From positions 48,891-112,890 of the forward strand of contig CABYIR010000002.1 in the NCBI GenBank assembly GCA_902518955.1: DNA of 64,000 bases, given 5' to 3'. Positions 6,210-48,217 of this stretch are shown here, piece after piece (within the stretch, counting starts at the first letter, position 1; each line of letters opens with the position of its first letter). The position numbers were made by a program, and so were the translations under genes. A model generated the notes under the pieces. That model saw nothing but the letters and a program-made list of their open reading frames with translations. It was not told the origin of the DNA and made no database searches. Source of the DNA: an uncultured Pelagibacteraceae bacterium (GTDB lineage Bacteria; Pseudomonadota; Alphaproteobacteria; Pelagibacterales; AG-422-B15).

Positions 6210-6743
6210 ATGAAAGTTGTAATAAATAAATTTATTTTGCTGGTATATGCCACAATAATTCTAATTTGTAACCCCTTAAATATTAACTTTATTTTAGCAG
6301 CAGATTTTATTTTTGAGGAAAAAAGTGGGTTTTCAAGTGAATTCAAAAACGAAAATGATGATCTTTTTTCTTTAGATGATTTTAAAGAAAAGGTTCTATT
6401 AGTTAATTTATGGGCAACATGGTGTGAGCCCTGTAAAGAAGAAATGCCTTCTTTAGATAATCTTCAAACTCTTTTTAATAAAAATGAATTTACTGTTCTG
6501 CCAATAAATTTAGATCGAGGTCCAAAAAAGAAAGCTTTGAATTTTTTTGATGATTTCAACATTATAAATATAGAAACTTTTTTTGATGATAAGAATAATA
6601 TTCCTAGAGAAGTAAAAATCTTAGGATTACCTGTTACATTATTAATTAATAAAAAGGGCTTAGAGGTCGCAAGGTTAATTGGGCCAACTGAATGGACAGA
6701 TAAAAAGATATTAGAAATAATTCGAAAAGAAATATCTAATTAA
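6210..6743 (+). CDS. TlpA-like thiol:disulfide oxidoreductase (membrane-anchored or periplasmic thioredoxin fold)
   Basis: WATWCEPC active site with a signal/anchor sequence MKVVINKFILLVYATIILI. The start is either ATG 6210 or ATG 6201. The track start at 6087 lies inside argH. Confidence 0.8.
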   Translation: MKVVINKFILLVYATIILICNPLNINFILAADFIFEEKSGFSSEFKNENDDLFSLDDFKEKVLLVNLWATWCEPCKEEMPSLDNLQTLFNKNEFTVLPINLDRGPKKKALNFFDDFNIINIETFFDDKNNIPREVKILGLPVTLLINKKGLEVARLIGPTEWTDKKILEIIRKEISN

Positions 6744-27034: not shown

Positions 27035-27111
27035 TGGTGCGCTCGAGATGATTCGAACATCCGACCCCAGGATTAGGAATCCTGTGCTCTATCCAACTGA
27101 GCTACGAGCGC
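27035..27111 (-). tRNA. tRNA-Arg (anticodon CCT)
   Basis: The reverse complement reads GCGCTCG-TA-GCTCAGTTGGATAGAGC-A-CAGGA-TTCCTAA-TCCTG-...-TTCGAAT-...-CGAGCGC-A-CCA. 77 nt, cloverleaf intact. Confidence 0.92.
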
Positions 27112-27204
27112 AAAAAAAATAATTTTATTTATAAAAAAAATTTAATTTATTTTTTTAAAAATTTATAAAATAAAATTTTTTTTTTAAATTTTTTTTAAAA
27201 AAAA
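27112..27204. other. 93-nt tract made only of A and T
   Basis: Read directly: no G or C occurs between the tRNA-Arg 5' end (27111) and the C at 27205. The tract consists of phased A-runs and T-runs. Confidence 0.9.
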
Positions 27205-27300
27205 CTAATAAACATAACAAGTTAAGAAATTTAACTAATATTTAATTATAATTAAATTATTCTTTATATTTTGAATTTATTTTTGAAAATTTCCCAAAAA

Positions 27301-27329
27301 TTGACACTTTTTAATAAAAAGTTAAAAAT
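27301..27329 (+). promoter_or_regulatory. candidate sigma-70 promoter for the H1-like gene
   Basis: Perfect TTGACA at 27301-27306 and an A/T-rich -10-like hexamer (AAAAAT) 17 nt downstream. A GGGGAG Shine-Dalgarno sits at 27387-27392, 6 nt before the ATG. Confidence 0.35.
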
Positions 27330-27398
27330 TGTAACAGAACGAATCAATTTGATTCTATCTACTAACCTCTAACTAAACGCAAATGCGGGGAGAAAAAT

Positions 27399-27656
27399 AT
27401 GGAGGAACTAAAAATAATCTTTGCTAAAGCAAAGAAAAAAGCAAAGAAAAAAGCTGCACCGAAGAAAAGAAAAGCAGCTCCTAAGAAAAAGAAAAAAGCC
27501 GCTAAAAAAAAAAAAGCAGCTCCTAGGAGAAAAGCTAAAAGAAAAGCAGCTCCTAAGAAAAAGAAAAAAGCCGCTAAGAAAAAAAAGGCAGCTCCTAAAA
27601 GAAAAAACGCAGCTCCTAAGAAAAAGAAAAAAGCCGCTAAAAGAAAAAAAAGATAG
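27399..27656 (+). CDS. Lys/Ala/Pro-repeat histone-H1-like basic protein
   Basis: 85 aa, almost entirely AAPKK(K)/KKAAKKKK repeats after the N-terminus MEELKIIFAKAKKK. It has a strong SD, its own promoter-like element and a terminator. Confidence 0.7.
   Translation: MEELKIIFAKAKKKAKKKAAPKKRKAAPKKKKKAAKKKKAAPRRKAKRKAAPKKKKKAAKKKKAAPKRKNAAPKKKKKAAKRKKR
27474..27640 (+). repeat. intragenic tandem repeats in the H1-like gene
   Basis: An identical 32-nt unit, gcagctcctaagaaaaagaaaaaagccgctaa, starts at 27474, 27546 and 27609. Shorter gcagctcct copies lie in between. An A12 run spans 27504-27515. Confidence 0.85.
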
Positions 27657-27657
27657 T

Positions 27658-27687
27658 AAGCATTAATATTATTAATGCTTTTTTTTT
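27658..27687 (+). terminator. rho-independent terminator, possibly bidirectional
   Basis: Perfect hairpin aagcattaata-t-tattaatgctt at 27658-27680, followed by a T8 run. On the opposite strand the same hairpin is followed by a T-run after 6 nt. Confidence 0.65.
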
Positions 27688-27697
27688 GCGTCCTTAG

Positions 27698-28567
27698 TTA
27701 AATAGCTAAGGGCGCTTTTTTTATCTTATCTCGACCAAGTACTTTATCAACTTTTTTTATTGCGTTCTCTTCAGGTATATTTAGGCCCGCCATAACCTCT
27801 CTTAGAAATCGATCATAAGCTAGTTCAAATAGCTGTCTCTCACTATAAGATTGTTCAATCTGGTTATTTGCTCTATTTAAATCTCTCACTACTTCTGCGA
27901 TTTGTTCAATATCACCAGAGTTTATTTTTTGATCGTACTCTTGAGCTCTTCGACTCCACATTGTCCTTTTAATCCTTGCTTTTTGTGCGAGTATTTTCAT
28001 GACAGATTGTATCTTTGATGGCTTAGATACTTTACGAAGATTTAAAGCTTTCGCTTTTTCTACCGGAACCCTAAGTACAAGTTTATCTCTTATAAACTCA
28101 ATTACATACATCTCAAGGTTTTGACCAACAACTTCTCTTTTCTCAATATCAATTACACATCCTACGCCATGTGTTGGGTATACAACGTAGTCTTTTGTGC
28201 CAAATATCTTTTTAACTTTTTTTTCTTTGATTGCTTTAATCTCAAGTACTTTTTTTACTTTTTTAGCTTGGTAATGAGATGGATTGATAAGACGATTATT
28301 TACTTTTTTCTCAGAAGGTTTTGAAGCGATTGGAAGCTTTGATTTCGATGATGGCTTAGCATCTTTATTTTTTTTTAAAATTTTTTCTTTTACAATCTTT
28401 TTTTTCCTGACTTCCTTCTTTTTTTTTATTACAGAGGTTTTCTTTTTAGTTAACGCATCCTTCTTTTTTTTGATAATTCTCTTTTTCTTTTTTAGAACAA
28501 CATTTTTTTTTGAGGCTGATTTTTTTCTGACTGAAATAGATTTTTTCTTTAAATTTTTTTTCTTCAT
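27698..28567 (-). CDS. carD: CarD/CdnL-family RNAP-binding regulator with a lysine-rich N-terminal extension
   Basis: Residues from about 122 to 289 match CdnL ([15 protein letters not shown]..., [30 protein letters not shown]). By my count 49 of residues 1-120 are Lys. The ATG overlaps the fdxA stop as ATGA. Confidence 0.85.
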
Positions 28568-41371: not shown

Positions 41372-42289
41372 GTGAACGTCCATCTTATACTTGAAAACTT
41401 TTTAGAAGTACTAGCTTCTGAAAAAGGTTTAGCATTTAACACAAGAATGTCATATAAAAATGATATTCTTCAGTTTTCAGTTTTTCTTGAAAAAAATAAA
41501 AAAAAAATAAATGAAATTACGTCAATTGATATTGAAAAATTTATATCAAAATTTACAACTCAAGGTTTAGAAAAATCAACTATATCAAGAAAGATGTCTG
41601 CGTTGAGTCATTTTTTCATTTTCTTATTAGAAGAAAATATCATCAAAAAAAATCCTATTAATGAATTAGATCTTCCTAAACAAATAAAAAAATTACCTAA
41701 AATTTTATCAGTTGATCAAGTTGAAAAATTAATCAAATCTTCTCGTGAAGATCAGTCAATAAATGGAATTAGATTGAATACAATGATTGAAATATTATAC
41801 GCTACTGGTATTCGAGTCTCAGAACTTGTTGAAATGAAATTATCAGCAACATATGCAGAGAAAAATTTTCTTCTTGTACAAGGAAAAGGTAATAAAGAGA
41901 GACTGGTACCAATTAGTGAAAATACAGAAAATAAGATTAAAGACTATTTGAAGATAAGAAACAAATTTATAAATAATGACACTGAGTCAAAATGGTTATT
42001 TCCATCAAAGCAATCATCGAAAGGCCATATAACGCGCCAGAGGTTTAATCAGTTACTGCAAACTTTATGTGAAAGAGTTAATTTAAATAATATTAGAATA
42101 AGTCCTCATAAACTAAGGCATGCATTTGCTACTCATCTTCTCGCAAATGGCGTAGATCTAAGATCATTACAACAAATGTTGGGTCACGCAGATATATCAA
42201 CCACTCAAATTTATACTCATGTACTTAAAGATAGACTTAAAAAATTAGTATCAGATAATCATCCATTATCTAAAATTGAAATCAATTGA
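41372..42289 (+). CDS. xerD: tyrosine recombinase XerD
   Basis: 305 aa with catalytic R...HxxR...Y elements (LRHAFATHLL, GHADISTTQIYTHV). GTG start. Confidence 0.88.
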   Translation: MNVHLILENFLEVLASEKGLAFNTRMSYKNDILQFSVFLEKNKKKINEITSIDIEKFISKFTTQGLEKSTISRKMSALSHFFIFLLEENIIKKNPINELDLPKQIKKLPKILSVDQVEKLIKSSREDQSINGIRLNTMIEILYATGIRVSELVEMKLSATYAEKNFLLVQGKGNKERLVPISENTENKIKDYLKIRNKFINNDTESKWLFPSKQSSKGHITRQRFNQLLQTLCERVNLNNIRISPHKLRHAFATHLLANGVDLRSLQQMLGHADISTTQIYTHVLKDRLKKLVSDNHPLSKIEIN

Positions 42290-47275: not shown

Positions 47276-47278
47276 TTG

Positions 47279-48217
47279 ATGAAAAATATTTTAGTTATTA
47301 AACATGGTTCATTAGGCGATATGGTTCAGATAAGTGGAGTTTTAAAGGACCTAAAAAACTCATTTATTGATTATAAGATTTCACTTTTGACTACCTCTTT
47401 ATACCAAGAATTAATGAGTAAATGCCCGTATATAGATGATATTATCTTAGATGATCGAAAGATAAAATGGAATCCTCTAGTATTTTTGAGATTAAAAAAG
47501 AAATTAAATAAGTTAAATTTCTCTTATGTTTTTGATTTTCAGAATTCAAATAGAACAGAAATCTATAGAAAATATATATCTAAAAATTCAATATGGTCAT
47601 CTTCAAGAACAATTCTAAAAGAAACAGAAAAAAAAAAAGAATTTGATAAACTTGCAATACTAGAAAGGTTTAAAATTCAATTAGAGCGCTCAAATGTAAC
47701 TCCAACTTACACTATGCAACCTGACTTTTCATGGGCTATTGATAATAATTTCTGGCCTAAGGAAATTATTTCTAAAAAATATATAACTCTTCTTCCATTT
47801 TGTTCTAAGCATTTACCACATAAAAAATGGCCTTTTTATAATGAATTAATAAGCATGATCAGAAAAGAAAATAAAAATATAGAAATAGTTATTGTCCCAG
47901 GTCCAGGAGAAGTTTTCGAAGCATCTTCATTTGACGCGCAAATTATTTTAGATCGAAATCAGCCAACAAATTTTTTTCAGTTGGCAAAAATATTATCTGA
48001 GTCACTTTTTGTTGTTTCAAATGATACTGGACCTGCTCACATTGCAGCGCATTTAGGTTGCAGTGGCTTAGCCTTATTTGGCTCCCATACAAGTTCTCGT
48101 AAAGTAAGCATTAAAACTGATCATTTTGATGTAATAGAGTCTAAAGATCTAAATGATATATCTGTAAATCAAGTTTTTAATAAAATTCAGTTACATTTAC
48201 AGCTTGAAGATATATAG
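47279..48217 (+). CDS. glycosyltransferase family 9 (heptosyltransferase-like)
   Basis: N-terminus ILVIKHGSLGDMV and motif NDTGPAHIAA. I prefer the ATG at 47279 to the TTG at 47276. Confidence 0.75.
   Translation: MKNILVIKHGSLGDMVQISGVLKDLKNSFIDYKISLLTTSLYQELMSKCPYIDDIILDDRKIKWNPLVFLRLKKKLNKLNFSYVFDFQNSNRTEIYRKYISKNSIWSSSRTILKETEKKKEFDKLAILERFKIQLERSNVTPTYTMQPDFSWAIDNNFWPKEIISKKYITLLPFCSKHLPHKKWPFYNELISMIRKENKNIEIVIVPGPGEVFEASSFDAQIILDRNQPTNFFQLAKILSESLFVVSNDTGPAHIAAHLGCSGLALFGSHTSSRKVSIKTDHFDVIESKDLNDISVNQVFNKIQLHLQLEDI

Follow-up and report, generated by a model that had tools for sequence, protein, structure and literature searches.

A 64-kb stretch of contig CABYIR010000002.1, from a Pelagibacterales (SAR11-type) genome, carries on its plus strand a small gene for an extremely basic, repetitive protein. 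We call the whole 64,000-nt stretch the window (G+C content, 31%) and the gene the mini-gene. Its 85-residue product (MEELKIIFAKAKKKAKKKAAPKKRKAAPKKKKKAAKKKKAAPRRKAKRKAAPKKKKKAAKKKKAAPKRKNAAPKKKKKAAKRKKR; the open reading frame [ORF] sequence begins MEELKIIFAKAKKKAKKKAAPKK) contains 42 lysines, 22 alanines, seven arginines and six prolines. Lysine and arginine together make up 58% of the residues, and the pI is 12. An earlier note on this DNA had described a histone-H1-like gene with an 85-aa product at 27399-27666. The ORF and its start are as described, but its end is not: the gene stops at 27656, and 27666 is the end of a second ORF in the +1 frame. The locus contains the following features.

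27035-27111, minus strand: tRNA-Arg(CCU), the divergent upstream neighbor and second syntenic anchor (ARAGORN and the Rfam tRNA family)
27301-27329, plus strand: sigma-70-type promoter, with TTGACA at 27301-27306, a 17-nt spacer and a -10-like AAAAAT at 27324-27329
27336-27398, plus strand: predicted 5′ untranslated region (UTR) of about 62 nt, counted from a putative transcription start site
27341-27355, plus strand: leader hairpin 1, 5′-proximal (GAAUCA/UGAUUC)
27363-27378, plus strand: invariant 16-mer UAACCUCUAACUAAAC, from alignments
27378-27387, plus strand: leader hairpin 2, 3 bp (CGC-AAAU-GCG)
27387-27392, plus strand: Shine-Dalgarno (SD) sequence GGGGAG, 6 nt 5′ of the ATG
27399-27656, plus strand: the mini-gene, frame 0, encoding an AKP-repeat polycation of 85 aa, 9.6 kDa and net charge +47
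27421-27666, plus strand: +1-frame ORF of 81 aa, a compositional by-product and not a gene
27474-27505, 27546-27577 and 27609-27640, plus strand: three exact 32-nt repeat units, each encoding AAPKKKKKAA(K)
27504-27515, plus strand: A12 run made up of four AAA Lys codons, a synonymous state specific to this genome and not a conserved slippery site
27658-27722, plus strand: two tandem intrinsic terminators from a terminator scan
27658-27687, plus strand: terminator 1 (hairpin 27658-27678, T9 at 27679-27687)
27688-27722, plus strand: terminator 2 (hairpin 27688-27715, T7 at 27716-27722)
27698-28567, minus strand: carD/cdnL, the convergent neighbor and syntenic anchor of the family, 289 aa, with the Pfam domains CarD_TRCF_RID and CarD_C

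As the earlier note had stated, the mini-gene is convergent to carD, and the ORF coordinates place the two stop codons 41 nt apart (27657-27697). We used CarD as an anchor to retrieve 80 related loci. The window's CarD is 73-97% identical to that of 17 Pelagibacterales single-amplified genomes and metagenome-assembled genomes (MAGs) and about 50% identical to that of other Pelagibacteraceae, LD12/Fonsibacter and HIMB59 genomes. An ortholog of the mini-gene, always convergent to carD, is present in all close relatives with a locus that extends far enough, 16 genome loci in all. Metagenome contigs scanned with a leader pattern gave 68 further loci. The 81 complete genes discussed below include the window gene, which shares the family features with 16 genome loci and 64 metagenome loci.

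The note had held that an ORF absent or interrupted in close relatives would speak against its reading. In fact, all 81 complete copies are intact in frame 0, with the SD and ATG in common and a stop immediately ahead of the terminator. Among alleles of the same length, variable sites number 6, 12 and 33 at codon positions 1, 2 and 3, respectively. The position-2 changes that were read directly (27528; L011-L015) exchange lysine and arginine, which are also the main replacements. Against its nearest genome relative, L001, the window gene shows six synonymous and two nonsynonymous differences, with alanine and proline codons varying synonymously. We conclude that the gene is genuine and monocistronic and that only frame 0 is read.

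Protein databases hold little of this family. Eighteen exact family sequences, including the window protein and the commonest 85-aa allele, are absent from a collection of 15 billion proteins in which the window's CarD, CsaA-like protein, ferredoxin and photolyase are all present. A word-indexed search of 5.8 billion proteins matched only one 48-aa fragment, and a full phmmer search against 1.84 billion representatives returned only this fragment and a 40-aa ortholog; composition filters cripple such searches, and the 15-billion-protein collection may itself exclude low-complexity products. The fragment (P0001, 48 aa, from a 776-nt European Nucleotide Archive contig) has the normal N-terminus followed by unrelated sequence (…AAPKKNMNGDASRNGKKAPFSFL), and the 40-aa protein (P0034) has several K>N/Y/I changes. 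Both are probably low-coverage assemblies or degenerate alleles. PDB sequence searches gave no matches, and the papers available to our literature search included no relevant work on H1-type, histone-like, lysine-rich or small proteins of SAR11 or Pelagibacter.

Nearly the whole protein is repetitive. It begins MEELKIIFAKA, and the first eight residues, MEELKIIF, are its only nonrepeat part. The three identical 32-nt units that the earlier note had placed at 27474, 27546 and 27609 are confirmed by exact matching. Two pairs of copies extend further, to 41 nt (27465/27537) and 34 nt (27474/27609), and a 21/42/72-nt periodic array spans approximately 27426-27653 (Tandem Repeats Finder periods 21, 42, 72 and 93). 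A triple exact 32-mer is clearly nonrandom and the result of tandem duplication. We also made the comparison between strains that the note had proposed: repeat number differs between relatives, and the 81 complete genes encode proteins of 33-103 aa.

Within this array lies the feature that the note had emphasized, an A12 run in the middle of a gene whose +1 frame is also open. Both are present as described. The run is the longest homopolymer in the window, and the +1 ORF ends 10 nt past the frame-0 stop. The open second frame, however, is forced by amino-acid composition. Stop codons begin with T, and the first base of a +1 codon is the second base of a frame-0 codon. No T stands in second place in any codon for Lys (AAR), Ala (GCN), Pro (CCN), Arg (AGR/CGN) or Asn (AAY), so the +1 frame cannot close, whichever synonymous codons are used. 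Internal +1 stops occur in 24 of the 81 orthologs, exactly those with valine in their repeats. The +1 ORF is without an SD, its TTG start arises from the Phe8-Ala9 codons, and its exact product is not in the 15-billion-protein collection.

The A12 run is found in only one of the 81 genes. In the other 80, the longest A-run is six (8 genes), seven (17) or eight (55) and never reaches nine. When Lys codons are permuted, or assigned according to the genome's 78:22 AAA:AAG usage, the expected maximum is 11-14, and the orthologs' runs are shorter than the permutation expectation (P of about 0-0.02 in most). For the window gene, random Lys-codon assignment produces a run of at least 12 in 91-94% of trials. 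Since A12 is expected so often, the nonrandom feature is not the run but the absence of long runs in the relatives. The homologous KKKK site contains at least one AAG in nine of the nine closest relatives that keep it. Its codons read AAG AAA AAA AAG in L001, with AAA AAG AAA AAA, AAG AAA AAA, and AAG AAG AAA among the other arrangements. At this site the window differs from L146, whose protein differs from the window's by one residue, by a single synonymous G>A at 27509.

In Escherichia coli and yeast, runs of consecutive AAA codons are strongly depleted, and ribosomes slide robustly on an A11 tract (PMC4363877). The spacing of AAG codons in the family fits avoidance of such sliding on poly(A). 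Taken across the alleles, the comparison indicates selection against slippery A-runs in this family, and the best reading of the A12 in the window is a synonymous lapse of recent origin or an error in the sequence. The run is no designed switch, though in this one genome it may reduce or diversify the output.

Length changes at the A-run site are also seen: the close relatives L091 and L134 have KKK in place of KKKK, a 3-nt in-frame indel, and all the changes seen there are in-frame. Long coding runs are not unique to the mini-gene. The window contains an A11 at 47628-47638 (ORF 47276-48217) and an A10 at 41498-41507 (ORF 41372-42289), and A9 runs are tolerated in the carD tail (T9 on the plus strand at 28368, 28419 and 28503).

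The mini-gene has its own TTGACA element, GGGGAG SD and terminator, as the earlier note had proposed, and the terminator turns out to be a tandem pair. Every relative has kept the -35 box, the leader, the SD and the terminators. The promoter matches 10/12 positions in a promoter scan. The sequence AAATTGACA, which lay outside the pattern used to find the metagenome loci, is invariant in nine aligned relatives and in all 42 distinct upstream sequences from 79 loci, and five divergent Pelagibacterales/HIMB59 lineages all have an unchanged TTGAC. Few genes of the window have a strong SD: among 58 crudely called ones, whose starts are approximate, two have an SD core of at least 5 nt and 45 have none. 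At the other end, the tandem terminators fold with -29.4 kcal/mol (z = -5.9). They are kept in relatives with compensatory changes, and equivalents exist in the Pelagibacteraceae, LD12 and HIMB59 versions of the gene. The note had suggested a standalone and perhaps highly expressed gene. These conserved signals support a separate unit and make high expression probable.

The leader is structured as well (RNAalifold and minimum free energy folds; z = -2.6 in the window). Both hairpins are predicted in all 48 distinct leaders, among which hairpin 1 shows A:U<->C:G and U:A<->U:G changes and hairpin 2 a single C:G<->G:C swap. Additionally, a CCUCUA element is predicted to pair with UGGAGG of the start region, which runs from the second base of the start codon through codon 2 into codon 3, of which it takes in the first base; of the 48 leaders, 34 show this pairing in full and 13 in part. 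There is one copy of the 16-mer in the window and a single exact copy in each of the 16 genome loci, which were found via CarD. No Rfam family matches the leader, and the window locus and two ortholog loci gave only sub-threshold, terminator-driven matches. We suspect that the 5′-proximal hairpin stabilizes the transcript, and the leader element is a possible translational operator.

Several smaller observations concern the same signals. An A-tract abuts the -35 box upstream and may act as an UP element. Terminator 2 is built partly from the last five codons and stop of carD (KKAPLAI*), an arrangement that constrains both genes and is conserved in relatives. In a sister clade whose proteins begin MEDLKI[IL]FAAAKKK (checked in L016 and L017), GAAG replaces GAGG after the ATG, which removes one pair of the predicted leader/start-codon helix. 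We considered whether the locus might be a leader-peptide attenuator, a short K/R ORF followed by a terminator, and rejected the idea: no gene on the same strand follows, since carD is convergent, and in other lineages the mini-gene's counterpart grows to 148 aa.

Similar short, basic ORFs occur at or near carD in other lineages.

L036, L039-L042 and L044 (in L040, 6603-6698), minus strand: 31-32-aa ORF MAKKRKAAKKTSKKRKASRRKPAKKAKKRRR, LD12/Fonsibacter-type, between carD and tRNA-Arg(CCU)
L066, L069 and L073-L080 (approximately 6560-6730), minus strand: 21-24-aa ORF, for example MAKRRKKAKKKTKKKAKKRRRRR, Pelagibacteraceae-type, convergent to carD
L048-L071 (for example, L050 2167-2370), minus strand: HIMB59-type AKP proteins of 67-148 aa, with the same start (MAKKRKAAKK) and end (RKASRKRR)

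All ten Pelagibacteraceae-type and all six LD12-type loci are convergent to carD, with a terminator at the carD 3′ end. These 16 loci are syntenic orthologs of the mini-gene and share TTGAC(A/T), a leader-opening (A)CGAATCA hairpin whose distance from the -35 box is constant, GGGAG lying 5-6 nt ahead of ATG GCT AAA, and a G+C-rich terminator. In MAKRRKKAKKKTKKKAKKRRRRR, 20 of 23 residues are basic. The window gene has all the features of this carD-adjacent family: convergence, TTGAC, the CGAATCA hairpin, the SD, a K/R-rich ORF and the terminator. The HIMB59-type gene, some 3.6 kb upstream of carD, is flanked by ccmABC-like genes and by an 850-aa helicase and is divergent from a helicase-TerB-ferredoxin-carD string. 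Its promoter contains TTGACT, its leader has two hairpins and its SD is a perfect AAGGAGG; the terminator is strong, and the longest A-runs are 6-9. We found no such ORF near carD in 25 Rhizobiales and Rhodobacterales loci. By this comparison, we take the window protein to descend from an ancestral polycationic micro-peptide whose repeats expanded in one clade and which gained a new N-terminus of eight residues.

The second syntenic anchor has a patchier distribution. tRNA-Arg(CCU) flanks the orthologs in L001-L014 as well as the 31-aa LD12-type genes; it is absent beside the Pelagibacteraceae-type loci, and in L016 and L017 of the MEDLK clade it is not adjacent to the gene. The idea that this tRNA serves the mini-gene was rejected, as arginine is almost always encoded by AGA here.

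An AlphaFold2 model of the protein, made without an alignment, has helical segments broken at each AAP and no globular fold (predicted template modeling score, 0.28). A search of the window protein against Pfam (hmmscan, E<=1) returned no families, and the globular winged-helix domain of linker histones H1/H5 (PF00538) was thus not matched. Chlamydial Hc1 (PF07432) and Hc2 (PF07382) gave no Pfam match to the window protein at E<=1 or to short orthologs at E<=10, although HMMER composition filters limit the sensitivity of such a search on low-complexity proteins. The 85-aa protein, the +1 product and short orthologs have no matches in Pfam and NCBIfam. The histone H1 label given by the earlier note is therefore apt for composition, a Lys/Ala/Pro-rich basic tail, but not for family membership (no linker-histone, Hc1 or Hc2 profile matches), and it is not evidence of homology.

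In composition, the protein resembles the H1 C-terminal tail, Hc2/HctB, AlgP, the C-terminal region of PhaF, BpH1 and the HupB/MDP1 tail, all of which have K/A/P low-complexity repeats. The H1-tail-like proteins of Chlamydia, Pseudomonas, Bordetella and mycobacteria likewise have very high positive charge and no globular fold in the repeat. Hc2 ranges from 165 to 237 aa according to its number of Lys-rich pentamers and varies between strains (PMC2848022); the mini-gene family also varies in repeat number between strains. AKP/KPAA repeats bind DNA in H1 tails and Hc2 (PMC2848022), the KPAA repeats of PhaF bind mRNA leaders (PMC12818456), and AlgP repeats organize polyphosphate (polyP) granules (PMC9239181). 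The mini-gene product, too, would be expected to bind polyanions electrostatically. Compared to these H1-like proteins, the mini-gene product is much smaller (33-103 aa and, ancestrally, a probable 21-32) and more densely charged, and it lacks an attached HU, phasin or winged-helix domain. Where they repeat S/TPKK or KPAA, it repeats AAPKK, and its gene has its own conserved structured leader, unlike the systems compared. Whereas AlgP and PhaF join KPAA repeats to a folded or phasin N-terminal region, the mini-gene product consists of AAPKK(K)n and the 8-aa MEELKIIF only. Among small basic condensing peptides, which also include Coxiella ScvA, protamines are matched by the Pelagibacteraceae-type orthologs in size and charge density. 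Unlike protamines, the product is dominated by Lys rather than Arg, with no known developmental context and no demonstrable sequence relationship.

Given these results, our preferred explanation, to which we assign a probability of roughly 0.55 as a whole, is that the mini-gene is a monocistronic, frame-0 gene for a repeat-expanded micro-peptide that acts as a nucleic-acid-binding polycation. An ancestral gene for a K/R peptide of 21-32 residues would have stood convergent to carD throughout the Pelagibacterales. Tandem duplication of 21-72-nt units would then have added AAPKKKKKAAKKKK modules, together with the 8-residue N-terminal extension, and copy number would have kept changing between strains by unequal recombination or replication slippage. 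Expression would be driven by the near-consensus promoter, the 5′-proximal hairpin, the strong SD and the double terminators, while the conserved CCUCUA element may tune translation through its predicted pairing with the start-codon region. Synonymous placement of AAG, which keeps A-runs at eight or fewer, would protect the poly-Lys message from both polymerase slippage and ribosome sliding. The protein would bind and neutralize nucleic acid without sequence specificity, much as a protamine or the C-terminal tail of H1 does. Such a role is the best fit because the charge density is extreme, there is no fold, and length varies approximately threefold (33-103 aa); a nonspecific nucleic-acid-binding polycation is thus the most likely function. 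As its target we prefer nucleoid DNA, with compaction of DNA or the nucleoid as the outcome, at odds that we judge a little short of even; RNA or the ribosome is the main alternative. A bolder extension seems doubtful to us, namely that all Pelagibacterales carry a very highly expressed, protamine-like polycation (21-148 aa) that is a major nucleic-acid counter-ion, dosed by a leader operator and tuned clade by clade through its repeats. It would then be the main nucleoid-compacting agent or a new ribosome component.

Some observations weigh against this explanation. Homology to a characterized protein is not demonstrable, as Pfam, NCBIfam, the PDB and two large protein searches yield only close orthologs. 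The orthology of the MEELK-type and MAK-type genes rests on synteny and regulatory layout and not on alignable protein sequence. In the metagenome loci, invariance of the leader (the 16-mer) follows by construction from the pattern used to find them. The start-codon helix is without covariation, its columns being invariant, and the MEDLK clade loses a pair. The extreme length variation could mean that the repeats are nearly neutral products of AT-biased slippage. Finally, high expression, a function for the leader and the binding target are all read from sequence features and are best taken as provisional.

Two alternatives dispute that frame 0 alone is used or that a protein matters at all. 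The note had proposed that slippage at A12 switches between two basic proteins instead of truncating the product. In model systems, runs of this length suffice for slippage or sliding (PMC4363877), and a net change of -1 or +2 nt (A11 or A14 transcripts) would lead into the open frame and an 88-89-aa basic hybrid. A net change of +1 or -2 nt, however, truncates the product at 41-42 aa, resembling the natural 40-aa alleles, and a +1-nt slip is equally likely. Programmed slippage and frameshift genes such as dnaX and insertion sequence (IS) transposases also combine an A-run in an ORF with a downstream open frame (reviewed in PMC5009743), but here the run is confined to a single ortholog, runs longer than eight are actively avoided, and the second frame is a forced consequence of composition that nearly a third of orthologs break. 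The excess of variable sites at third positions of frame 0 is what coding in that frame alone would produce. Across the family, these comparisons refute dual-frame slippage as a conserved feature, and we regard a functional slippery site in the window as extremely improbable. Very unlikely, too, is a nonprotein origin, whether as a purine-rich small RNA or as a near-neutral low-complexity ORF generated by AT bias and repeat slippage beside a tRNA. Open frames are cheap in purine-only sequence, which cannot contain stops; the gene's length is very variable; and gene callers miss it, as the database searches with 18 family sequences and four neighboring proteins illustrate. Against this, an SD at fixed spacing, an ATG and an in-frame stop before a terminator are conserved across at least four deep lineages. 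The third-position excess, K<->R replacements and synonymous variation of Ala and Pro codons are those of a coding sequence, and the placement of AAG is sensible only for a Lys message that is translated or accurately transcribed. A small RNA is also disfavored by the lack of an Rfam family match.

The remaining alternatives accept the protein and differ in its target. In the more serious of these, which we consider possible but clearly less probable than DNA binding, the product is an RNA- or ribosome-associated micro-protein, either of the bS22/bL37/bTHX type or a disordered RNA binder that modulates translation, like the C-terminal domain of PhaF, and its expansions are tolerated surface tails. 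bS22, bL37 and bTHX are K/R-rich peptides of 20-35 aa from tiny, often unannotated genes with strong translation signals, and the ancestral 21-32-aa peptides are similar in size and charge. The mini-gene's expression signals resemble those of ribosomal-protein genes: where a genome has few SDs, a strong one is characteristic of a small number of translation genes that are highly expressed or autoregulated, and the conserved leader could be an autoregulatory operator. PhaF is a precedent, as its KPAA repeats activate translation by binding the 5′ UTRs of mRNAs (PMC12818456). On the other hand, searches of NCBIfam, Pfam and PDB ribosome chains with 31-, 33-, 67- and 85-aa forms gave no bS22, bL37 or bTHX match, a result blunted by short, low-complexity queries that leave almost no power. 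The gene is not linked to ribosomal operons, and its sequence and length are far more variable between close strains than expected of a ribosome-embedded peptide; ribosomal proteins rarely differ fivefold in length among close strains or are so loosely conserved. A role in organizing polyP granules or another polyanion, like that of Pseudomonas AlgP, is far less plausible. SAR11 lives under phosphorus limitation. AlgP has similar K/A/P repeat chemistry and localizes to and spaces polyP granules (PMC9239181). Yet the locus has no linkage to polyP genes, nothing in our data points to granules in these lineages, and the 21-24-aa forms are without AKP repeats. We therefore retain a nonspecific polycation, preferably bound to nucleoid DNA, as the best explanation for the mini-gene product.

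Bacterial H1-like AKP proteins are already known, so the chemistry is not new. What stands out is a family that appears to be order-wide in SAR11-type bacteria yet is largely invisible to gene callers and protein databases. It escapes annotation because its 21-32-aa forms are very short and all of its forms are low-complexity. Pelagibacterales are the most abundant bacteria in the ocean, and inventories of the nucleoid and ribosome of these streamlined cells may lack an abundant component. The 21-148-aa series would be a natural record of a micro-peptide growing into an H1-tail-like protein by tandem duplication. With its sharp ceiling of eight As in 80 alleles, this poly-Lys gene gives an unusually clean comparative sign that selection acts against slipping polymerases or sliding ribosomes. 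The earlier note had proposed the opposite.

One family allele illustrates how a frameshift would appear. In L048 (2160-2366, minus strand), a HIMB59-type MAG allele switches mid-gene to an LLRK-type frame and back (MAVKKKK...AAKEKRLLRKLLKEKQHLRRKKPLREKLLRRKAAPKKSC), and AKP coding continues past its stop; this is either an assembly error or a decaying allele.

The surroundings of the mini-gene show further low-complexity sequence. The spacer between tRNA-Arg(CCU) and the mini-gene promoter (27112-27300) is extremely AT-rich and contains several short tandem repeats with periods of 11-29. CarD itself, which the earlier note had called lysine-tailed, indeed has a Lys-rich, low-complexity N-terminal tail of approximately 120 aa (28200-28567, minus strand). 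Lys-rich CarD extensions, approximately 100-120 aa long across these genomes, are also found in LD12-type (L040 5746-6549) and HIMB59-type (L050 5812-6519) genomes. Myxococcus CarD has an HMGA/H1-like domain, which the tail described here resembles, although it is N-terminal. In the LD12-type genomes, the tail contains an AT-hook-like KGKRGRPKNP motif.

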